Source of the DNA: Promethearchaeota archaeon
GTDB lineage: Archaea; Asgardarchaeota; Lokiarchaeia; Sigyniarchaeales; SOKP01
Assembly (NCBI GenBank): GCA_019058365.1
Contig: JAHPZE010000002.1
Location: 64,001 to 128,000, forward strand
DNA length: 64,000 nucleotides
Reading direction: 5' to 3'
A program made the position numbers and the translations under genes. Shown here piece after piece: positions 53,068 to 64,000 of the stretch. The stretch's first letter is position 1; every line of letters begins with the position of its first letter. The notes beneath the pieces were generated by a model, which ran no database searches, had not been told where the DNA came from, and was given only the letters and a program-made list of their open reading frames with translations.

Positions 53068-53364
53068 TTAAATAATTTCATGACATATTTTTATATCGAT
53101 TCCAGGTTCTAAAAGAGGACTCAATTTTACCATGTTCTTACCTAAATTTTTATTATGTTGTTTCAATGCATCAGAATCAGCATATACTTCATAAAAAATA
53201 ATTGAATTTTCCTCTCCCTTTATTGTGTGAGGAATATATTGCAAACATCCTGGTTCTGATTCTTTTATTTTAGGTACAACTTCTTTTAGGACTTCAATTG
53301 CTTTTTCCATATTTCCTTTTTTCACTCGAGCTGCTGCAATTAATGTTATTGGGATTACAACCAC
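53068..53364 (-). CDS. Antibiotic biosynthesis monooxygenase (ABM/YgiN-like) protein
   Basis: EPGCLQY, FYEVYAD.DALKQH; true start is GTG 53364 or ATC 53355 rather than 53448. Confidence 0.8.
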   Translation of the reverse strand: MVVIPITLIAAARVKKGNMEKAIEVLKEVVPKIKESEPGCLQYIPHTIKGEENSIIFYEVYADSDALKQHNKNLGKNMVKLSPLLEPGIDIKICHEII

Positions 53365-53687
53365 CAATTCTTTCTTTATATTTTTAGTATTAATTTTAAT
53401 TTTTAATAAAATTATTAATAAAATTGTTAATTCCATAAAAAATTGCATTAGCTAAATAATATTGGTTATTTAGACAATTTTATTTCTATAATACATTCTA
53501 CTCAAATAGTACAAATAAAACCTTTTACAATATTACAATAATTAAAATCAGTTTATTTTAAAATTTAGGTACTCAGATGAGTTAATATTATAAATTTTAT
53601 GGTGAATTTATGAGTAGAAATTTAAATAATTACTAAACTTATATAGCATACACTTATGAACTAAATAACCTCAAACAGTTTGATATT

Positions 53688-55553
53688 ATGATCCCAAAAA
53701 ATATGGAATCCTTTCTTAATGAACATCTCCCTAAAGCTACTTTTAAAGCTCGGCTTAAAAAAGATCAAGGAAAATGTTATTTAGAATTTAGTAATCTAGA
53801 TGTCCATCTTTTATCCCATTTAGGGATTATATGCGATAAAGTAGGTCCTCACTTAGTAGGATGTATATGGGATGAAAATTCACCACTTGAAATCGGTGGA
53901 TATGTAGTTGTGGATTCCCTCGCGGGAGGTCGCCCTTCAATGGGAGGAATTAGGATGTTACCAAGTATAACTCCATCTGATATCCATAATCTAGCACGAG
54001 GAATGACGTTAAAAAATGCTGCTGCTAATCTTCCTTATGGGGGTGGAAAAGCAGGAATTGTAGCAGAAAGGGGACTCTCTCCCGAAGAACATACTAAAAT
54101 TGTCAGTGGTTTTGCTCGATTAATTCGACGGTATAAAGAAATCTACCTTCCAGGGCCTGATGTTGGCACGAATGATGCTGATATGAAGACTATTGCCATT
54201 GAAAATGGGTTAGATAAAGCTCTCTCTAAGCCTGCTGATATGGGTGGGAACCGTATTGATGAACTTGGAGCTGCTGCGGGAGGCGTTATAATTGCATTAC
54301 AAACTCTGTTAAAAATTATGCCAAGATTAAGAATACTTACTCAATTCGCTAATTTGGAAATTCCTAATACAAAAGATCTTAAAATATTGATTCAAGGTTT
54401 TGGAGCAGTAGGAGCTCATGCTGCCCGTATATTGAAAGATCGATTACCTGAAGCAAAAGTTATAGGTATTAGTGATTTAGAGGGATATTTATATAATGAA
54501 TCTGGATTACCTATTGGAGAATTATTTAAATTATGGAAAAAAAATAAATTAGTTACTAATCTATATTTTAAAAATCAAATACTCTCAGAAGGATATAAAC
54601 ATCCAACTAAATTTTCTACAAATGCAGATAATTTACTCCTAGAAAATGCATTTTGTTTGATTCCAGCTGCTCCTATTTTTAATTATTTATGTGTCAGAAG
54701 ATCTGAAAATCCTTCGATGACTGTTGATCGAATGGGAAAATGGTCAGTGATTATTGAAGGTGCTAATACTTACTCTCCTGATCCAAATAGAAAGGCTGCC
54801 CGAATTCGGATGGAACAAATTGTATATCGAGAAAAAGGAGTTATGATCGCAAATGATTATTTAGTTAATTCGGGTGGAGTAATATTTGCAGCTCAAGAGC
54901 ATATTGTAAAAACCCCAGATCACCTACAAATTCCAGAAGAAATGTTAGGTAATCGTGAATTAGTACAAAAATGGTTAAAAGATCATGCAAATGAATTTGC
55001 TAAATTATCAAAACAACGTTTAATAGCAGGTGAAGAATACAGAGAAAAAGTAATTCATAATAACATGATTGAATTAGTTGATATGCTAACTAAATATCCA
55101 GATATGTTACCCTGCACTGCTGCTGAACAAATAAGCCTTCAGCGTCTTACAGCGAAAGAAAGACAACGTACAGCTAAGGACATTATGATACCAATACCAA
55201 CTATCGACGTTAAAAGCACAATTCAAGAAGCTGCATCATTAATTATTAAAGAAGTGAGTGATATCATAGCTGTTCTTTCGAGTGGTAAACTTGTAGGTGT
55301 TGTAACTGATTGGGATGTTACAAAAGCTATGGCGGAGGGAAGTATAGATGTTACTCTTGACAAAATAATGACTAGAGATGTTATTACCACTCATCCAAAT
55401 TTTACAATTGTAGATATAGTGCGTGAATTGGAACAATCTAAAATCTCAGCAATGCCGGTTGTGGAAGAAGGTATTGTATTAGGAAAAGTTAACTCAGATC
55501 TCATTGCCCAACGCTACGTATTAGATTTACTACAGTCTCGAGAACCGCATTAA
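53688..55553 (+). CDS. Glu/Leu/Phe/Val dehydrogenase fused to a C-terminal CBS pair
   Basis: GGIRM, GMTLKNA..LPYGGGKAGI, PGPDVGT, QGFGAVG, EGAN, NSGGVI; TAKDIM...GVVTDWD...IMTRDV..MPVV. Confidence 0.88.
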   Translation: MIPKNMESFLNEHLPKATFKARLKKDQGKCYLEFSNLDVHLLSHLGIICDKVGPHLVGCIWDENSPLEIGGYVVVDSLAGGRPSMGGIRMLPSITPSDIHNLARGMTLKNAAANLPYGGGKAGIVAERGLSPEEHTKIVSGFARLIRRYKEIYLPGPDVGTNDADMKTIAIENGLDKALSKPADMGGNRIDELGAAAGGVIIALQTLLKIMPRLRILTQFANLEIPNTKDLKILIQGFGAVGAHAARILKDRLPEAKVIGISDLEGYLYNESGLPIGELFKLWKKNKLVTNLYFKNQILSEGYKHPTKFSTNADNLLLENAFCLIPAAPIFNYLCVRRSENPSMTVDRMGKWSVIIEGANTYSPDPNRKAARIRMEQIVYREKGVMIANDYLVNSGGVIFAAQEHIVKTPDHLQIPEEMLGNRELVQKWLKDHANEFAKLSKQRLIAGEEYREKVIHNNMIELVDMLTKYPDMLPCTAAEQISLQRLTAKERQRTAKDIMIPIPTIDVKSTIQEAASLIIKEVSDIIAVLSSGKLVGVVTDWDVTKAMAEGSIDVTLDKIMTRDVITTHPNFTIVDIVRELEQSKISAMPVVEEGIVLGKVNSDLIAQRYVLDLLQSREPH

Positions 55554-55590
55554 TAATTAAAATTTTAAAATATAATTTATTAAGAAGATC

Positions 55591-56721
55591 TTAATAAAAT
55601 TTTATAATATTATATAAAGTATCTCTTTGTGCTGGTCTTTTTCCTGCGTTATTTATTATTTTCACTATTTCTTCTGGAGACAAATACTCGCCAAATTCAG
55701 CACCAGCACTTTTTGAAATATTCTCTTCCATTAATGTTCCAGAGAAGTCATTAACCCCGTAATTTAAAGAAACTTGCGCAAAATTTGGACCCAATTTTAC
55801 CCAACTACATTGGATATTATCAATGTAATTATTAAAGAATAATCTTGCTACACAAAATAGTTTTAAATCATCCATTCCATAGTTAGGTTTTAAAGGAAAA
55901 TTTTCAAGTTGAGATAAAATCGGATTTTCTTTTACGAACGGTAATGGTACAAATTCAGTGAACCCATGAGTTTCCCTTTGTATTTCTCTTAATATTTCTA
56001 AATGCTTAACTCTATCACTTAAACTTTCAATATGGCCATACATTATGGTAGAAGTTGTTGGAATCTTTAACTTGTGAGCAGTAGTTATAATTTCTTTCCA
56101 TTGAGATGTATTCACCTTATTTGGACAAATCACTTTTCTTATTTCATCAACTAATATCTCTGCAGCTGTTCCTGGAATAGAGTCTAGTCCTGCTTTTTTT
56201 AATTCTCTAAGCGTATCTAATATCGAATTTTCAAATAATTTGGCTATATAGAATATTTCCTGTGGAGAAAATGCATGTATATGCATCCTTGGATCGATTT
56301 TTTTAACAGTTTTAAGAATATCCAAATAAAATTCAAACTTTACCTTAGGATTTATGCCACCTTGAATACAAACTTCCGTACATCCCGTATTTTTAGCTTC
56401 GATTACTTTTTCTCTAATCTGATCAATATCAAGTAAGAATGCATTAGGATCTGTTGCTGGTAAACTAAAAGAACAGAACTTACAGCGTTGATAACAAATA
56501 TTTGTGAAATTTATATTTCTATTTATAACAAAAGTTACAAGATTTTGCTTTTTTCCGAAGCAGATCTGATCTGCTACGTATTGTAAAGCAAAGAATTCTT
56601 TTCCCTTTACTTTTAAAATCTCTAAGGCTTCTTCTGAACTTATTTCATCCGAATCTAAAGCTTTCTGTAGAATTTTCTTTATATTTGGACTGATATTTTC
56701 AGACAACTGAGTATTTATCAT
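55591..56721 (-). CDS. cofH: FO synthase subunit 2
   Basis: NRNINFTNICYQRCKFCSF, IPGTAAEIL, IQCSWVKLG, GTLMEENISKSAGA. Confidence 0.92.
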   Translation of the reverse strand: MINTQLSENISPNIKKILQKALDSDEISSEEALEILKVKGKEFFALQYVADQICFGKKQNLVTFVINRNINFTNICYQRCKFCSFSLPATDPNAFLLDIDQIREKVIEAKNTGCTEVCIQGGINPKVKFEFYLDILKTVKKIDPRMHIHAFSPQEIFYIAKLFENSILDTLRELKKAGLDSIPGTAAEILVDEIRKVICPNKVNTSQWKEIITTAHKLKIPTTSTIMYGHIESLSDRVKHLEILREIQRETHGFTEFVPLPFVKENPILSQLENFPLKPNYGMDDLKLFCVARLFFNNYIDNIQCSWVKLGPNFAQVSLNYGVNDFSGTLMEENISKSAGAEFGEYLSPEEIVKIINNAGKRPAQRDTLYNIIKFY

Positions 56722-57823
56722 CTAAATTTATATTATCAATTACTTTTTTAATATTTTCTGGACAAAAACTTTCTTTCTTTATAAATTTACTATAGATGGG
56801 GAGTCTCTCTTTGAGATTATAACCTTTTTCTTTACAAATTTTATATAAATCCTCTATTTGAGGCCACTGATTTTCAGGATTTATAAAATCTAATGTAAAA
56901 GGGGAAATTCCACCAAAATCATCAATACCCATATCGATAAACTCTCTTTCAAAACCTGGTATAAGATTTGGTGGAACTTGAATAGCAATATCGTTTTCAA
57001 AAATAATTCGAGCAAATCCTACTATTTTAAGCATATCTTCAAGAGTAATTGACTTTCTAGGCTGGTAAGGGATATTTTGTTTATTTATAAAATTTTGAAT
57101 TATTACTTCTTGTATATGACCATATTTATCATTGATCTCCTTTATTAAATATAAATCTCCAATGATATCTTCAATACTTTCTCCAATACCTAATAATAAA
57201 CCTGTAGTAAAGGGAATTTTTAATTTTCCTGCATTATTTATGTGCTCTATTCTTTTTTTTGGCATTTTTCCAAGAGAATGCTCATGTACTTCGCCCTTTT
57301 CAAAGAGTTTCATGCTTGTACTTTCAAGCATTAATCCCATACTTGCATTATATTTTTTTAAATTCTTTATTTCATCATATGTCAAATATCCTAAATTTGT
57401 ATGTGGTAGAATGTTAAAATCTAACAGATAAGTGCTAACATCTTTTACAAACTCAATAAAATCTGAACATTTTCTTTTTTCTAATTCTTTTTTAACTTCA
57501 AGAAATCTTCCAGGACGTTCTCCAGACATTATAAGGGCTTCTTTACATTCATTTTGAAACGCTTTCTGAATTAAATTTACTATGTGTTCATTACTAAGCA
57601 AAATAACATTGCTCTCACTATTTAATTTCGGAATTTTATAATTATAAAAGCAATACCCACACTGATTTATACAATAGTTTGAAAGAGAAAGTGTAAAATT
57701 TTTAGAATATGTAATTACATTACGATCTTCCTCAGGTAATTGATCTTTTATATCTTTAACCTTAATACTCAATTTCTTAATAGTTAAGCTTATTAATTGC
57801 TTGATTTTCTTTTCATTCATCAC
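56699..57823 (-). CDS. cofG: FO synthase subunit 1
   Basis: ITYSKN, CINQCGYC, LPHTNLG, SMGLMLE, PFTTGLLLGIGE, GHIQEVIIQNF, QVPPNL. Confidence 0.92.
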   Translation of the reverse strand: MMNEKKIKQLISLTIKKLSIKVKDIKDQLPEEDRNVITYSKNFTLSLSNYCINQCGYCFYNYKIPKLNSESNVILLSNEHIVNLIQKAFQNECKEALIMSGERPGRFLEVKKELEKRKCSDFIEFVKDVSTYLLDFNILPHTNLGYLTYDEIKNLKKYNASMGLMLESTSMKLFEKGEVHEHSLGKMPKKRIEHINNAGKLKIPFTTGLLLGIGESIEDIIGDLYLIKEINDKYGHIQEVIIQNFINKQNIPYQPRKSITLEDMLKIVGFARIIFENDIAIQVPPNLIPGFEREFIDMGIDDFGGISPFTLDFINPENQWPQIEDLYKICKEKGYNLKERLPIYSKFIKKESFCPENIKKVIDNINLDDKYSVV

Positions 57824-58488
57824 TTTCTCTTTTTATAACTTAAAGTAATATAATAAGTTCTGATTTTAACATCAAATAAATCAAATCTAGGTGCACTTTT
57901 TATCTCTTCAAATCCTATTCCTTCTACCAAGCTTGTTGCTTCCTTTCCACCAACAATCCAGGGTGCTATAGTTAACCTTATATCATCAATTAAATTATTT
58001 TGTATAAAACTCCAATTTAAATTACCACCACCTTCCAATAAGATAGTATTTATTCCCAAACTTTTTAGGATCGGTAAAAGCTTTATTAAATCCACACGTT
58101 TACCATCTCCCGCTCTAATTATTTTTACTCCTCTTGCTTCATAATCTCTTTGTTTGGTAAATGGAACATTTTCAGTAGTGCAAATTATTGTAGGATAAAT
58201 TTCTGGTCGAAAGGAAATTACATTCGATTCTAGTGGTATCGTCAAATTGCTATCTAAAACAATTCTATAATATCCTTTATGATTATAATATTTAATATGC
58301 AATTTTGGATTATCTTTTAAAATTGTATCCTTTCCCACCATTATTGCATCAACTTGAGTTCGAAGTTTATGGACCTCTTTCCAGTCAACTTTATCCGATA
58401 ATTCTGAATCACCCTCTTTAGTTGCGATTTTACCATCTATAGTCATTGCAGCGCTTAAAATAATATAGGGATTGTTAACTTTTTTCAA
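57820..58488 (-). CDS. arfC: 2,5-diamino-6-ribosylamino-4(3H)-pyrimidinone 5'-phosphate reductase (Rib7/ArfC)
   Basis: AAMTIDGKIAT, VHKLR..VDAIMVG, DNPKL, LEGGG; stand-alone reductase with no deaminase domain. Confidence 0.88.
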   Translation of the reverse strand: MKKVNNPYIILSAAMTIDGKIATKEGDSELSDKVDWKEVHKLRTQVDAIMVGKDTILKDNPKLHIKYYNHKGYYRIVLDSNLTIPLESNVISFRPEIYPTIICTTENVPFTKQRDYEARGVKIIRAGDGKRVDLIKLLPILKSLGINTILLEGGGNLNWSFIQNNLIDDIRLTIAPWIVGGKEATSLVEGIGFEEIKSAPRFDLFDVKIRTYYITLSYKKRK

Positions 58489-59644
58489 ATACTAATCCTC
58501 CTTTAATAAATGTCTTTTTTATATTTTCTGATTTTGTTCTTTGAGTAATTAGATCATATATATTATTAGAATCTAAAATTGAAGAAAAGAGATTTGGAGA
58601 GCTAAGATCAATTAAAAAAAGATCAGCAAATTTTCCTTTTGAAATTGAACCAAACTCTTTTTCGAGATCAAAATTTTTTGCAGCATTAATTGTAACCATC
58701 TTCAATAAATCTTTAGAGGAAAATTGAAGCTCTTTATTATAATTGCATAAAACCCTCGAAATTCGATAAAGATATCGTATCTCTTCAAATAAATCTGTAT
58801 TATTTACCATTAAATTATCTGTTCCTAAGGATATTGGAACTTTTAAGCTTAAAATTTCATTGATGGGAGGAAATCCGGTTCCAAAATATCCATTACAACG
58901 AGGACATAAAACAAGAGATTTATGATATCTGTTTATTTTTTCTAAATCATTTTTGATAAATTTTGTTCCATGAATGATGATATCAACAAAATTATCACTA
59001 AACATTTCATTTATTAAATTTTCACTACGAATCTTTTCCGCACAATGGCAAGCAATAATTTTTTTAAATTTATGTTTAGCAGATACAACAAATTTTTTAT
59101 TTGATGAACTAATTTGTTTATAACTAGATAATCCAACTCCATCTGCCATATTAAATATAGCTTCTATTTCGCTTTCATCCATAAATCGTCCTAAAACTAA
59201 AAAATTAATTGGACTGTCAGTAAGTGCCTTTTTTAAAAGCTTTACTCCTTTAACCCCTTCCTCTCGAAAATCAATGAAAAATGTAATACCATTTGAAAGC
59301 ATTTCTAAAACAGCATTTTGAATTCCATTAATCTTAATGTCTTTTGGAGTTTGTCTTAATAATTTATGTTTAAGGCCAAATGGTGGGGCAACGATTTCCC
59401 CTAGTTCTTTATTAAAACCCAATTCTTTTGCAAAATTATCTCCAATATGGATATGTGAGTTTATAAAACCTGGAATCATTAAGAATGTCTGATGATTGGG
59501 AAGAATTTCGATATTTGCACTTATATTATCACAAGAAATATGGATAATTCTTCCATTTTCGTCTATTTCTAAATTTACATTCTGCTTTAAATCTAAATTC
59601 TCTCCAATTAAAGCATATTTGCTATATAAGAATTTTTTAGCCAT
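58475..59644 (-). CDS. Amidohydrolase-superfamily metal-dependent deaminase
   Basis: PGFINSHIHIGD, HCAE, HGT, CPRCN, LGTDN, TINAA, GKFADL; start uncertain (59644/59668/59704). Confidence 0.85.
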   Translation of the reverse strand: MAKKFLYSKYALIGENLDLKQNVNLEIDENGRIIHISCDNISANIEILPNHQTFLMIPGFINSHIHIGDNFAKELGFNKELGEIVAPPFGLKHKLLRQTPKDIKINGIQNAVLEMLSNGITFFIDFREEGVKGVKLLKKALTDSPINFLVLGRFMDESEIEAIFNMADGVGLSSYKQISSSNKKFVVSAKHKFKKIIACHCAEKIRSENLINEMFSDNFVDIIIHGTKFIKNDLEKINRYHKSLVLCPRCNGYFGTGFPPINEILSLKVPISLGTDNLMVNNTDLFEEIRYLYRISRVLCNYNKELQFSSKDLLKMVTINAAKNFDLEKEFGSISKGKFADLFLIDLSSPNLFSSILDSNNIYDLITQRTKSENIKKTFIKGGLVFEKS

Positions 59645-59737
59645 TAATTCATAAACAATGTAAATCATTTTAAATATTTCTAATCCTTTTAAAGAATAGA
59701 ACATTAAAAAATTAATTTTTGATACTGGTGGCTATAA

Positions 59738-60697
59738 ATTACTAAATTTAAAACAGATCTACAAGATTCTGGTTCAATAATAGATATTCCAATTGACAAG
59801 GTTGGTATTGTAGAATTGCAAAAAAAAGTTGAGATTGTTCAAGAAAATAAAAAGTACTCTTTCTATCCTAAAATTTCAGCGTTAATCAATCTTCCAGCTG
59901 AGCAGCGTGGAATTCATATGTCCCGAACTTCGGAAACTATAGAAGAAGTCATTAATGAAGTAATTTTCAAGCCCACCCCAACTATTGAACTTGTTGGAGA
60001 TAGAATTATAAAGAAATTAATGGAACAACACCCTTATACTTCTAAAGCTGAAGTAAAACTAGAAGGCAAAATTGTTGTTCAAGTAAAAGAAAATGATGAA
60101 AGACTTATTCAAAAATCATATGACATTAGTTCATTTGTAAAAGCAAGTCGAGATATTTCGGAAAATCTTGATTTTAATTATTTCATAGGTGCTAGTGCAG
60201 TTGGTATGACGGTCTGTCCTTGTGCTAAGGAGCTTTCTTTGGAATATGCAGAAGAAGTTGTTAAATCTAGAAAAGATATAAATGTTTCCGAAGAAGATCT
60301 TAATAAGCTGTTAAATCTACTTCCTTTCTCCTCACATAACCAAAGATCCATTGGGACAATAATTATCCAAATAAAAGATTTAACTAATCATAAGGTGGAT
60401 GTTTTAGATATAATTGATGTAATAGAAGAATCTATGAGCGGTAAAATTCAATCTGTTTTAAAAAGACCAGAAGAAGCTGAATTAGTAAGAAGTGCACACT
60501 TAAAACCTCTATTTTCAGAAGATGTTATAAGAGAAATGGCAAAAAATTTCATTTTAAGAGATTTTCCCAACCTTGAAGATGATTTTAAAGTAAAATTTAA
60601 AGTAGAAAGTCTAGAATCTATACATCCCCATAACGTCTTTGCTTCACTGAAAACGACCGTAGGAGAGTTAAAAGAAAGGCTGAAATATATCCATTAA
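59738..60697 (+). CDS. mptA: GTP cyclohydrolase MptA (FolE2 family)
   Basis: RGIHMSR, GMTVCPCA, SHNQR, LKRPEE, EDVIR, ESIHPHN; conserved N-terminal DLQ...IDKVGI lies upstream of 59816, so ATT start proposed at 59738. Confidence 0.9.
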   Translation: MTKFKTDLQDSGSIIDIPIDKVGIVELQKKVEIVQENKKYSFYPKISALINLPAEQRGIHMSRTSETIEEVINEVIFKPTPTIELVGDRIIKKLMEQHPYTSKAEVKLEGKIVVQVKENDERLIQKSYDISSFVKASRDISENLDFNYFIGASAVGMTVCPCAKELSLEYAEEVVKSRKDINVSEEDLNKLLNLLPFSSHNQRSIGTIIIQIKDLTNHKVDVLDIIDVIEESMSGKIQSVLKRPEEAELVRSAHLKPLFSEDVIREMAKNFILRDFPNLEDDFKVKFKVESLESIHPHNVFASLKTTVGELKERLKYIH

Positions 60698-60731: not shown

Positions 60732-61916
60732 CTATCCTTTCTTTAGTAAGCCCTTATAAATGACTATATAATTTTTTATACTAATAATTTTAGGATTTTT
60801 CCTATAATTTGACGGAATAGGAGCATTACATCTAGAACAAAGACGAGAGCTTCTAAGCCAATCTTTGAATTCATCTGCATGAGCGGGATATCTACAATTT
60901 GGACATAAAATTATTCCTCTACCATTATCCTTAGGACTTTCAGGCAATCTAAAACAAAATATACATTTAAAATCGTCTATTGATAAATTGGCTGCCTTTG
61001 GTCTGTATAACTTAAAATTTATATGCTTTATGGTACTTTCAGTACTTCTAATTGGTCGACCTGTTTTACTACTACTTATTGTCCTAGTAGTTGTTTTGAC
61101 TCTAGAACTTCTTGATTGTATATTTGCATTAGGTGTTGATCTTGATGAATGAGATACTGATCTTGAAGTACGAGACACTGTTCTAGTTGAGGGTGTCGGA
61201 GTTGATCGCATTGGGCTGCGACTACTTTCAGTGCGTCGATTAGGAGACAATAAATCATTTAATCTACTTGTGCGGCTTGCTATATAGTCTCTAGTTAATC
61301 GGGGTAATTGGTGTCGAGCTCCAAAAAATCCATAAATAATTATTATTAATATACTTCCAATTAGCAATAATAAAAGATTTAGATCAATTAAAAAATGAAT
61401 AGGTATTAATAAAGATTCATAGAAATCAATAAGTGAATAGAAACTTATCCAATAAACAATTATGAAAAATAAAATTGAAAATCCTAAAATATACCCAAAC
61501 TTCCGGGCATTTACTGATTTTATGCCAAAATAAATTACATTATATTTTCGAAAACAACGATATAAAGATATTGAACCATATAATACATAAGGAAATCCAA
61601 ATAAAATACTCCACCAACTTAAATATAAATCTGAGCTTATAAGAAGATTTTCTCCTAATAAACCAGTAAAATTTCCCCAGATTGAATAAAATATACCAAT
61701 AAAAACAGGACCAACAGTAAAAAATGCAGTATTGTGAGGACTTCGATATTCACGATATTGTTTAATATTTTTTAAAACTTTGAAAGAAAAAATTAACCAT
61801 ATTCCTATTAATAGCCAACTCACAAGTACATTAAAAGAATTTAGAATTGCACCATGTATTATGCCTATCAATGAAAATATCGCCAATGTTATTGCGACAG
61901 CTTTAAATTTAGGCAT
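60732..61916 (-). CDS. Multi-pass membrane protein with Ser/Arg/Thr-rich linker and C-terminal RING-like finger (putative E3 ligase)
   Basis: About 6 hydrophobic helices (aa ~5-200); CIFC-x16-CPNC-x4-H-x2-E-x3-W-x6-CSRC; last gene of the E1-E2-JAB operon. Confidence 0.78.
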   Translation of the reverse strand: MPKFKAVAITLAIFSLIGIIHGAILNSFNVLVSWLLIGIWLIFSFKVLKNIKQYREYRSPHNTAFFTVGPVFIGIFYSIWGNFTGLLGENLLISSDLYLSWWSILFGFPYVLYGSISLYRCFRKYNVIYFGIKSVNARKFGYILGFSILFFIIVYWISFYSLIDFYESLLIPIHFLIDLNLLLLLIGSILIIIIYGFFGARHQLPRLTRDYIASRTSRLNDLLSPNRRTESSRSPMRSTPTPSTRTVSRTSRSVSHSSRSTPNANIQSRSSRVKTTTRTISSSKTGRPIRSTESTIKHINFKLYRPKAANLSIDDFKCIFCFRLPESPKDNGRGIILCPNCRYPAHADEFKDWLRSSRLCSRCNAPIPSNYRKNPKIISIKNYIVIYKGLLKKG

Positions 61917-61944
61917 AATTTAATAATCACCAAATTTCTTATGT

Positions 61945-62775
61945 TTAATCTTCATCATATTCGAGGTATAATGCTTTCCCTTCAATTATAGGATTCATGA
62001 ATTTTAAAATTTCTGGAAGCATCTTAATATCTAATGATCCCTTAATTCCATATACTAAAGGATACCATGTTTTAGTTCTAAGATTTGCCGTATATATTTC
62101 AAATCCTGTGGATTTTCCATCAATTTGGTATGGATCAATAACAAGAGCAACGGACTTATCCCACAATTTTTGATATCTCGCTTGAGTGCCCATATCTTCT
62201 GCGCTTAAAAAACATCCGTAGCTCGGGTGTGAATGGTACCACCCACAGATAAATAATTTTTGTTTTTTTATATCTTGGTATGCTCTAGCATAGTTTTTAT
62301 AGTCTTTAATTTCAGCATAGACAGCTGTACCATGCCCCATTGGATAAGCATCCTCGATCTGTAAGAGACCATTATCTTTTTCTATTTTTCCTGCTAAAAG
62401 ACCTATAACTTCCACCCATTTTTCTCTTGGAATCTTAGAATTCGCATATTTAAGTGCATGACTCGCTATTTTAAGAATCGTCTTTACTGAAATATAAATT
62501 TCCTTATTGATTTTCTCTTCATCTTGAATATCAAACTCTTTTTTTTCCACAATTTCTGCTGTAGGTATCTTTGTAAGTTTTATAATAGGTTTATTAGAAG
62601 ATTTTTGTGTAAGAATTGAAGAAATTTCTTCTGTTAATTCGTCTTCTTCTAATGCAAGTTCTTCACAGATTTCATCTAGTAGTTCTTGTTTTATTTTTTC
62701 TTTTATCTTCCTCTTAATTGTATCTTTGATTGATTTTTTACCTGATTCTTTAGTGTCCATAAATGAAATCACCAT
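61945..62775 (-). CDS. JAB1/MPN+ metallo-isopeptidase (Rpn11/CSN5-like)
   Basis: EVIGLLAG, DAYPM, GWYHSHPSYGCFLSAEDMGTQ, VALVIDP. Confidence 0.92.
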   Translation of the reverse strand: MVISFMDTKESGKKSIKDTIKRKIKEKIKQELLDEICEELALEEDELTEEISSILTQKSSNKPIIKLTKIPTAEIVEKKEFDIQDEEKINKEIYISVKTILKIASHALKYANSKIPREKWVEVIGLLAGKIEKDNGLLQIEDAYPMGHGTAVYAEIKDYKNYARAYQDIKKQKLFICGWYHSHPSYGCFLSAEDMGTQARYQKLWDKSVALVIDPYQIDGKSTGFEIYTANLRTKTWYPLVYGIKGSLDIKMLPEILKFMNPIIEGKALYLEYDED

Positions 62776-63296
62776 TTTTTGTTTGCATACTTCTTAACAA
62801 GATTTTTTACTTTTTTCTCGAAAAATTTTGGATTTTTCATCATTTCGACTGCTGCTTTTTTATTGAAAACATCAGTAGGATTTACATATTTTCCACGTGT
62901 ATTTAACATAGCAATTATAGCTTGAACAACCGTAACCGCTGTTTTTGAAGGACTCCACCCCCCTTTTTTACCTAATAACGATGGATCTACTAAAGCTAGA
63001 CAAATATTTCTTTGGCCCTTATATTCAGATGGTTTTGGCCAAAAATTTGGATGCCAAATTGGAGTATGAAATCTAACAAAAGGAGGTTGGTTAGGATATT
63101 GAGCTGGGAATCTCAATTCTAATCTAAAAAGACCACCTGCATAAGCAGTCCCTTTGGGTCCTTTAAATGAAATTGCTAAATGATCAATACTCTTCTTTTT
63201 AGGATTAAATGGTATTAATTGAACAATACTCCCCTCTTTCAGCATTTTTTTTAATCCCGCATAATCTTGGGAAATACGACTACTTCTTATACTCAT
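62769..63296 (-). CDS. Ubiquitin-conjugating enzyme E2 (UBC)
   Basis: GPKGTAYAGGLF, FPAQYPNQPP.VRFHTPIWHPN, ICL, WSPSKT, N..AA..M..NP..F. Confidence 0.93.
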   Translation of the reverse strand: MSIRSSRISQDYAGLKKMLKEGSIVQLIPFNPKKKSIDHLAISFKGPKGTAYAGGLFRLELRFPAQYPNQPPFVRFHTPIWHPNFWPKPSEYKGQRNICLALVDPSLLGKKGGWSPSKTAVTVVQAIIAMLNTRGKYVNPTDVFNKKAAVEMMKNPKFFEKKVKNLVKKYANKKW

Positions 63297-63371
63297 TTTC
63301 TCAACCCTTTTTATTATCTTTAATTTTATATTGAAATTTTTTCTTTAAATAATTGTTTTTTTCTTAAAATA

Positions 63372-64000
63372 TTAATTTAAAACCGTTTTTTGATTCAAAT
63401 TTTGTTTTATTTTTAAGGTTACAAAAATTTCTCCACCTTTAAACCCTACAGCTGTCATAAGTTCGCAATTTCTTAAACCATTTTCAATTGGATTCTTTTC
63501 TAAATCAACTATCATAATATCATTGAAATCCAGTAAAGTTAGAATTGGTTCAGAATCTGGATCTAATTTAAATCCGTTTTTCTCCAATATTTTAATTATA
63601 TTTATACAAGGTGATTGAGATCTCAATTTTATAGATACCCGGCGAACGTCTTTACCACATTGAGAACATTCTGGATTTCTTTTTTTTTCAATATGGTAAA
63701 ATTTCATTGTAATTGCATTATAGATCACATAATTTCTAATAGGTTCACCTAATCCTTTATGTCCTTTTTTCCAATGAAGAATTTTGGTGGTTTCATGTGA
63801 TTGTAATGCAGAAATAACCGCATTTATAGTTATTATTCCAGGATCGTGTCTATCAATGATTTTCACAATATCATCCTTAGTATATTCAGGAAAGAAATTA
63901 TACTTGGTCACTAGTTCATTTGCAACCTTTTGAATGAATTTAATATCATTTATATTTTTTGGATTTGGATCTCTATCAAACTTTTCTCTAAATGCCATAT
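63372..64000 (-). CDS. Ubiquitin-activating enzyme E1, C-terminal part (Uba3/Uba2-like), truncated by the window edge
   Basis: DP....DIKFI...A, PGIITINAVISALQSHETTKIL, NYVIYN, RNPECSQC, followed by a ubiquitin-fold-like tail. Confidence 0.8.
   Translation of the reverse strand, partial: MAFREKFDRDPNPKNINDIKFIQKVANELVTKYNFFPEYTKDDIVKIIDRHDPGIITINAVISALQSHETTKILHWKKGHKGLGEPIRNYVIYNAITMKFYHIEKKRNPECSQCGKDVRRVSIKLRSQSPCINIIKILEKNGFKLDPDSEPILTLLDFNDIMIVDLEKNPIENGLRNCELMTAVGFKGGEIFVTLKIKQNLNQKTVLN

Follow-up and report, generated by a model that had tools for sequence, protein, structure and literature searches.

In Caldiarchaeum subterraneum, genes for ubiquitin, an E1-like activating enzyme, an E2-like conjugating enzyme and a small RING protein form an operon with an adjacent Rpn11 gene, and the chemistry of this system has been published (PMC5654768, PMC6043591). 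A cascade of E1, E2 and RING proteins has also been described in Helarchaeia, where it acts on UEV-Vps23 (10.1101/2023.07.25.550441). The archaeal ubiquitin ligases (E3s) that have been characterised are small, soluble RING proteins, and polytopic RING ligases and orthogonal modifiers have been treated as eukaryotic elaborations. Here we describe an operon at the right end of a 64,000-nucleotide stretch of DNA from a Promethearchaeota archaeon of the Lokiarchaeia (assembly GCA_019058365.1, contig JAHPZE010000002.1, positions 64,001 to 128,000; hereafter the window, which is G000:C34:64001-128000, G000 being the source genome). Its four open reading frames (ORFs), all on the minus strand, encode the C-terminal half of an E1 (63372..64000), an E2 (62769..63296), a JAB-domain metalloprotease (61945..62760) and a 394-residue membrane protein, a probable E3, that ends in a variant RING and a C-terminal helix (60732..61916). 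An earlier note, made from the sequence of the window, had described four co-oriented, tightly spaced genes, and the ORF positions, the Pfam matches to UQ_con and JAB and the gaps between the genes bear this out. We conclude that the operon is likely to be part of a conserved, membrane-anchored ubiquitin-like cascade that is separate from the Gly-Gly ubiquitin system of Asgard archaea.

We examined the synteny of the operon in 80 related Loki loci from GTDB. In all 80, the JAB gene is the immediate upstream neighbour of the membrane RING gene, which is far beyond chance. E2 follows in 76 of these loci, E1 in 72 and a gene for a ubiquitin-like protein (Ubl) in 66, with most of the shortfall falling at contig ends. 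The gene order is kept in distant Lokiarchaeia, in the cultured L. ossiferum (from NEF87_002996, the Ubl gene, to NEF87_002992) and in Hodarchaeales, and in two Heimdallarchaeaceae loci the Ubl-E1 pair lies just downstream. The gene for the transmembrane (TM) RING protein stays beside E1, E2 and JAB in two Asgard classes, in keeping with the earlier note's proposal that it belongs to the operon. Among 400 Asgard genomes, the Ubl, the operon-type E2 and strong membrane-RING matches occur in the same families (f1-f5, f7, f13, f15-f17, f28 and f29), and the remaining families show at most weak, RING-only matches. Close homologues are mostly labelled Promethearchaeota or Lokiarchaeota, and a scan of 1.84 billion representatives returned only 123 matches. 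Four closed genomes, those of P. syntrophicum MK-D1, H. repetitus, H. aukensis and H. endolithica, lack the Ubl, the operon E2 and the membrane RING together, as does genus g2. H. repetitus (G135) retains a 230-nt scar (L144:8113-8342) in which the decayed 3' end of a coiled-coil gene, described below, is joined to a decayed stretch of the RING gene (E 7e-7 and 1e-14). Because the scar joins these two ends, it indicates that the module was deleted as a block in this organism. Presence and absence across kin are not independent, so we read the distribution as a handful of losses of the whole module and not as a statistic.

The earlier note had guessed that the rest of the E1 gene and a gene for a ubiquitin ending in Gly-Gly might lie past the right edge of the window. 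The remainder of E1 (residues 1-213) and a Ubl gene are found there, but the Ubl does not end in Gly-Gly. The full E1 of 421 residues occupies G000:C34:127372-128637, and the Ubl gene, 79 nt upstream of it and also on the minus strand (G000:C34:128717-129049), encodes a modifier of 110 residues with an acidic arm that contains Lys-Thr-Pro and with the C-terminal residues IPASTAG. This Ubl scores above the cut-off for PF00240, which is matched by 35 of 35 aligned members of the group. Its terminal Thr-Ala-Gly is part of an S-T-A-G ending found in 92 of 92 E1-adjacent copies, in place of the Gly-Gly of the Caldiarchaeum-type operon. A short tail of 1-4 residues follows the Ala-Gly in 31 of the 92, and the JAMM protease could remove it. 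We considered and rejected the possibility that the modifier is an Asgard UFM1: it has no PF03671 match, its E1 is UBA2-like and its E2 is UBC-type; it may or may not be among the Ufm1 homologues of PMC12962969.

Further copies of the modifier are present. A second one, ending in IPASIAG, lies nearby at G000:C34:130923-131348 on the minus strand, and a third stands alone at G000:C16:301117-301449, beside small genes that by eye are glutaredoxin-like and ferredoxin-like. Near some operons, larger proteins too have the Ala-Gly Ubl domain at their C-terminal end, namely a HerA/DUF87 ATPase and a VWA protein (L116:13072-14814 (-), L117:1-1719 (+) and L129:7692-9449 (-)), and these could be conjugated whole. 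In some Lokiarchaeia, genes downstream of the RING gene encode proteins that carry Cys-x2-Cys pairs at the N terminus and end in an Ala-Gly Ubl domain (L122:9770-10660, L123:4119-4901, L134:8703-9470 and L134:9765-10658). Between the two modifier genes on C34, a plus-strand gene (G000:C34:130075-130875, equal to L001:10075-10875) encodes a protein with two TM helices that ends in a Ubl domain without the terminal Gly; it is kept in the source family and may act as a dock at the membrane, or as a decoy, for E1 or the JAMM protease.

The enzymes of the operon retain the residues expected for protein conjugation. The full E1 contains a ThiF adenylation domain (Pfam, E 2.8e-61) and is nearest to UBA2, UBA1 and UBA3 (E 2e-38 to 2e-35, with UBA2 at 2e-38), whereas UBA5 scores only 6e-16; its Cys196 aligns with the catalytic Cys of UBA2, UBA1 and UBA3. 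The E2, a UBC-fold protein of 175 residues, matches Pfam UQ_con (E 5.8e-26), and both its HPN motif at positions 82-84 and its catalytic Cys99 are kept in 39 of 39 aligned sequences. Two family-specific inserts of 7 residues flank Cys99. The metalloprotease is of the JAMM/MPN+ type, with a charged N-terminal extension. It matches Pfam JAB (E 8.3e-17), and its top PDB match is Caldiarchaeum Rpn11 (6FJV, E 1e-16), followed by Rpn11 and CSN5. Its JAMM motif, E122 with H181-x-H183-x7-S191-x2-D194 (ORF numbering), is intact, and the motif is present in 102 of 103 homologues.

The earlier note had called this a ubiquitin system, a name that does not fit, since the modifier belongs to a distinct Ala-Gly clade and the genome encodes a Gly-Gly ubiquitin and a second E1 and E2 elsewhere. 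The Gly-Gly ubiquitin is on contig C12 (around 107488-107691), unlinked to the other E1 and E2, which are encoded together at G000:C45:4404-7865; this second E1 has 529 residues and a long insert before its zinc site. In our trees, a supported branch sets the operon copies apart for each of E1 (100/98), E2 (97/95) and Ubl. The three trees also separate Loki-type and Heimdall-type copies, which is what one would expect under vertical descent. These trees contain Asgard sequences only, long branches affect their outgroups, and we claim no eukaryotic orthology from them. The C45-type E2 persists in genomes that have lost the operon, and both kinds of system are also present in L. ossiferum, whose Gly-Gly ubiquitin is NEF87_002374, and in Heimdall-type genomes. 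G067, a genome of a Hodarchaeales family, has three, the third being a cluster (L182:6072-10173) of a Ubl ending in KGG, a 408-residue E1, an E2 and a JAB.

A possible basis for selectivity lies in E1. The E1 position that faces modifier residue 72 is Tyr170. All 27 operon E1s have Tyr at this position, and the 4 other Asgard E1s and yeast Uba1 have Gln. The modifiers themselves have Ala, Val, Ser or Phe at the position equivalent to ubiquitin residue 72. Ala72 of NEDD8 is reportedly faced by Arg190 of UBA3 (PMC3731359). Tyr170 would probably select a small or hydrophobic residue at position 72, and we infer that the Ala-Gly modifier is charged orthogonally by its own E1 and E2.

One feature that sets this operon apart is its last gene. 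The membrane domain of the encoded protein (residues 1-198; 61323..61916) has six helices, at approximately residues 2-25, 28-56, 61-84, 101-123, 137-166 and 179-197, predicted from hydropathy and a low-confidence AlphaFold model. Because the number of Lys and Arg residues per loop alternates between high and low in 41 diverse homologues (1.7/0.3/3.6/0.5/4.9/0.3/2.8), both termini, and hence the RING, are predicted to be cytoplasmic. These predictions agree with the polytopic membrane protein of the earlier note. The membrane domain has no invariant residue across classes, and a profile of it found nothing significant in PDB or Pfam. With the full-length protein, Pfam and NCBIfam gave no RING or membrane family, and Foldseek, VIA and Atlas searches with the full-length model gave generic helical bundles, weak RING rows and one Promethearchaeota cluster only. 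ESM Atlas features of residues 1-205 gave no usable match. The membrane domain is followed by a linker (residues ~202-300; 61017..61313) that is predicted to be disordered (pLDDT <50), rich in Ser, Thr and Arg and almost free of acidic residues, with a mean composition in 104 homologues of 39% S+T, 23% R+K and 2% D+E.

The C-terminal domain, which holds the variant RING core C318-C321-C338-C341-H346-E349-C360-C363 (60828..60965), is assigned a RING fold from profile and fold searches. The RING-like E3 of the earlier note is supported to this extent, although the domain has no Pfam RING match and its sixth ligand position is occupied by Glu349, which would presumably bind zinc. The top PDB match of the RING profile is RNF24 (E 3.8e-4), with EL5, Ark2C, RNF38 and RNF4 lower. 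Modelled alone, the domain reaches a pLDDT of 83, and its matches in Foldseek and VIA are almost all RING or U-box proteins; all 50 matches listed by VIA are of RING/U-box type, the top one being 3LRQ (Z 7.7, rmsd 4.2, 74 aligned). UniRef names the L. ossiferum orthologue, NEF87_002992, a RING-type domain protein. The residues I319 and W353, which in a RING would face the E2, are conserved, with Trp in 64 of 64 homologues. A model of the E2 with the RING scores 0.63, versus 0.02 for the best control, where the mark that we applied is reached by 58 of 80 solved pairs and 2 of 110 mismatched pairs. Repeated runs share at least 97% of contacts, and the pLDDT of the partners is at least 89. The modelled contacts join helix 1, loops 68-69 and 115-117 and the insert at 108-111 of the E2 to I319, W353 and loop 2 of the RING. 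The modelled interface is canonical; because RING-E2 complexes have been solved many times over, the score shows likeness and not binding.

Related RING proteins vary in architecture. In G170, a paralogue of the Glu-RING without TM helices directly follows an Ala-Gly Ubl (L132:7134-7802), and the RING is duplicated in G130 (L130:6990-7403). A different Asgard membrane RING, in G007 (L150:5983-7722), combines a NosD/beta-helix domain, predicted TM segments, a Vps23-core-like segment and a RING in one protein.

Taken together, the genes suggest a dedicated Ubl cascade that would act on the cytoplasmic side of the cell membrane. The JAMM protease would trim any tail after Ala-Gly and would also remove tags from their targets. 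E1 would adenylate the terminal Gly, form a thioester at Cys196 and hand the tag to Cys99 of the E2. The six-helix protein would tether its RING by the flexible linker of about 100 residues and bind the charged E2, and the RING would promote transfer of the tag to lysines of proteins near the membrane.

The earlier note had suggested that membrane substrates may be tagged, but the best lead to a substrate is a soluble protein. Lys-Thr-Pro occurs in the acidic arm of 141 of 147 Ubl copies, and it also occurs at the ends of a coiled-coil protein in 48 of 48 close homologues. The gene for this protein (G000:C34:131542-132699, plus strand), 2.5 kb further on from the Ubl gene, is the most Lys-Thr-Pro-rich ORF in the source genome, where the background is 0.014 per 100 residues. 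In almost every distant Loki-type locus the coiled-coil gene adjoins the module, usually in divergent orientation to a Ubl gene, and in Hodarchaeales another gene with Lys-Thr-Pro repeats directly follows the RING gene. The arm of SUMO carries acceptor lysines. By analogy, the simplest reading of Lys-Thr-Pro would be that it is an acceptor-lysine motif, the alternative being that it is a docking or phosphorylation motif. The likeliest acceptor, though we would stop short of calling it probable, is the Lys-Thr-Pro lysine of the coiled-coil protein together with that of the tag's own arm, which would give SUMO-like regulatory tagging or chains. Somewhat more doubtful is a broader proposal, in which the common ancestor of Lokiarchaeia and Heimdallarchaeia had, before eukaryotes arose, parallel and mutually exclusive Ubl pathways. 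One of these would be a signalling ligase resident in the membrane, whose six-helix sensor controls a Glu-liganded RING that places the Ala-Gly modifier on the Lys-Thr-Pro sites of the coiled-coil protein as an effector and builds SUMO-like chains. If true, this ligase would be the first membrane E3 from a prokaryote whose acceptor site is defined by sequence.

Several observations weigh against a membrane-anchored cascade with an active RING ligase. The full-length AlphaFold model of the membrane protein is poor (pLDDT 58). The RING has only seven of the eight usual Cys/His ligands: Glu is found at ligand 6 in 120 of 120 close homologues with the motif and in 62 of 64 distant ones, a position held by His or Cys in most soluble Asgard RINGs. 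The loop-2 Pro is present in 14 of 64 homologues and is replaced by Ser in the source protein, and the linchpin position, Asn in the source protein, is mostly Asn, Asp, Ser or Gly and never Arg in homologues. Profile and fold searches show that IFT144/WDR19 and GATOR2 carry similar degenerate fingers. RING and E2 are a textbook pair, so the model of their complex may score well through likeness to solved pairs. Roughly ten other RING-like ORFs, mostly soluble and with Cys or His at ligand 6, are found on several contigs of the source genome and could serve the operon E2. No coiled-coil gene was found next to the operons of Heimdallarchaeaceae, and our look-ups, including those in the L. ossiferum supplements, found no biochemical or expression data. 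The unusual residues of the RING, together with its likeness to the IFT144/WDR19 fingers, the E2-specific inserts around Cys99 and the short lysine motif common to tag and partner, would also suit a protein that merely anchors or scaffolds the E2 at the membrane without allosteric ligase activity, leaving the E2 to pick the substrate as the SUMO E2 does. However, the conservation of I319 and W353, the canonical form of the modelled interface and the existence of active RINGs with linchpins other than Arg lead us to consider this alternative unlikely.

We also weighed three roles that have precedents in other systems. The earlier note proposed a module like endoplasmic-reticulum-associated degradation (ERAD), in which the membrane domain would recognise and tag damaged membrane proteins for extraction by Cdc48/VAT and delivery to the proteasome. 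Six TM helices with a cytoplasmic RING and a low-complexity linker do resemble Hrd1-type ligases, the Hrd1 RING ranks third among the fold matches, and the source genome has three Cdc48 homologues. However, the Hrd1 RING is one among dozens of equal RING matches, and the three Cdc48 homologues are unlinked to the operon and are common in other archaea too. In its low-confidence model, the membrane domain has neither a sequence match nor a clear structural match to Hrd1 or Doa10, a match to 9UAV (Z 6.2, 4% identity) lying within the noise for helical bundles, and its lack of an invariant residue across classes also argues against this role. The genes seen next to the operon included none for Cdc48, Derlin or the proteasome. 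Searches for Derlin and Ufd1 gave no match in the source genome, but no control genome matched either. Unlike a core quality-control path, the module is missing from several closed genomes, and cells of one of these organisms, MK-D1, lack organelle-like inclusions (PMC7015854). We therefore regard an ERAD-like role as quite improbable, and the label as an analogy of architecture only.

[quoted passage not shown] Binding of ubiquitin by Asgard UEV domains is known, as are gene clusters that join ubiquitin to ESCRT (PMC9192718; 10.1101/2023.07.25.550441), and ESCRT-III genes are present in the source genome. These genes are on other contigs, however, with no linkage of the operon to UEV or ESCRT found; the UEV/ESCRT neighbourhood in G067 and G033 carries Gly-Gly ubiquitin and a different E1, and Lokiarchaeia are reported to lack UEV-Vps23 (10.1101/2023.07.25.550441). 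This makes ESCRT sorting very unlikely. Antiviral conjugation of the kind carried out by bacterial Bil/Bub or CBASS Cap2, or conjugation to lipid as for ATG8, would fit the patchy loss of the module, the single terminal Gly that ATG8 and UFM1 share, and the Ubl domain at the ends of HerA-ATPase and VWA proteins beside some operons. Against this, PADLOC gives generic ThiF and weak JAB matches only, the trees split the copies as expected under vertical descent, the locus keeps its place next to folE2 within its family and the enzymes belong to the UBA2/UBC/Rpn11 type, which conjugates to protein, and we find such a role highly improbable. The membrane-anchored cascade distinct from Gly-Gly ubiquitin accordingly remains our preferred interpretation.

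The remaining details of the locus concern its layout. The gaps between genes are 75 nt from E1 to E2, 8 nt from E2 to Met6 of JAB and 28 nt from JAB to the RING gene, and this spacing suggests that the genes are co-transcribed. The earlier note reported that the annotated E2 and JAB genes overlap. The ORFs do overlap, the longest JAB ORF starting at 62775, but the genes themselves probably do not: because a ribosome-binding site, GGTGA (62769..62773), lies 8 nt before Met6 (62760) and many homologous JAB ORFs begin past the E2 stop codon, the overlap is probably a start-codon artefact, with Met6 the probable start. This GGTGA overlaps the E2 stop codon, an arrangement annotated as translational coupling of E2 to JAB. 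A second GGTGA (61927..61931) lies 10 nt before the start of the membrane RING gene. Past the right edge, a double winged-helix gene is encoded on the plus strand (G000:C34:129319-129990). Downstream of the operon, positions 53068-60697 of the window hold unrelated metabolic genes: a CofH/CofG-like radical SAM pair, a RibD-like reductase and an amidohydrolase (both by eye) and a convergent folE2. The folE2 and amidohydrolase genes flank the operon in most close relatives.

The operon type itself has been published, and the membrane RING and the Ala-Gly tag are new as far as the literature was searched. Full-text searches found no membrane RING E3 or Ala-Gly modifier in Asgard archaea, although mention in the supplements of Spang et al. 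2015, Zaremba-Niedzwiedzka 2017 or Burroughs 2011 is possible. We take IPR018611 to be the UFL1 family. Because this was the sole domain by which the Hatano survey scored E3s, that survey would not have flagged the membrane RING gene. Our results suggest that polytopic RING ligases and orthogonal modifier pathways were both present in the archaea most closely related to eukaryotes, among them Hodarchaeales, and that tagging at a membrane probably predates eukaryotes; the module alone would not show an archaeal origin of ERAD. The system is tractable: its components are all small, NEF87_002992-002996 are present in the cultured L. ossiferum, and P. syntrophicum MK-D1, also in culture, provides a natural null. 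Public proteome data exist for L. ossiferum (PXD074767, cited in PMC13716822).

Compared with known systems, the operon shares with that of Caldiarchaeum the clustering of five functions, a JAB whose top PDB match is CsRpn11 and, in a third of copies, a removable tail on the modifier. It differs in the Ala-Gly end, the acidic Lys-Thr-Pro arm, the fusion of the RING to six TM helices, Glu at ligand 6 and the presence of a separate Gly-Gly system. The Asgard ubiquitin-ESCRT clusters and the Helarchaeia cascade likewise have E1, E2 and RING proteins with a linked candidate substrate, but they use Gly-Gly, are linked to ESCRT and have RINGs that are not described as membrane-bound (PMC9192718; 10.1101/2023.07.25.550441), whereas the operon described here has its own E1 and E2 clades and no ESCRT neighbours. 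UFM1 also has a single terminal Gly, and eukaryotic UFM1 acts at the endoplasmic reticulum membrane; here, however, there is no Ufm1 Pfam match, E1 is nearer to UBA2, UBA1 and UBA3 than to UBA5, the E2 is an HPN-type UBC protein and the protease is a JAMM. The resemblance to SUMO and NEDD8, taken here as a likeness, lies in an orthogonal modifier with a UBA2/UBA3-like E1, an Ala72 facing a bulky E1 residue and a SUMO-like, flexible, lysine-bearing N-terminal arm; the differences lie in the Ala-Gly end, the single-gene E1 and the lack of a cullin or SP-RING. The eukaryotic polytopic RING ligases include Hrd1/SYVN1, gp78, Doa10/MARCH6, Tul1 and Asi1/3. Although the archaeal protein has no detectable homology to their membrane domains, a different RING ligand pattern and no Hrd3, Derlin or Ufd1 partner found here (the Derlin and Ufd1 searches being uninformative), it shares with them a multi-pass membrane domain joined to a RING that is predicted to be cytoplasmic.

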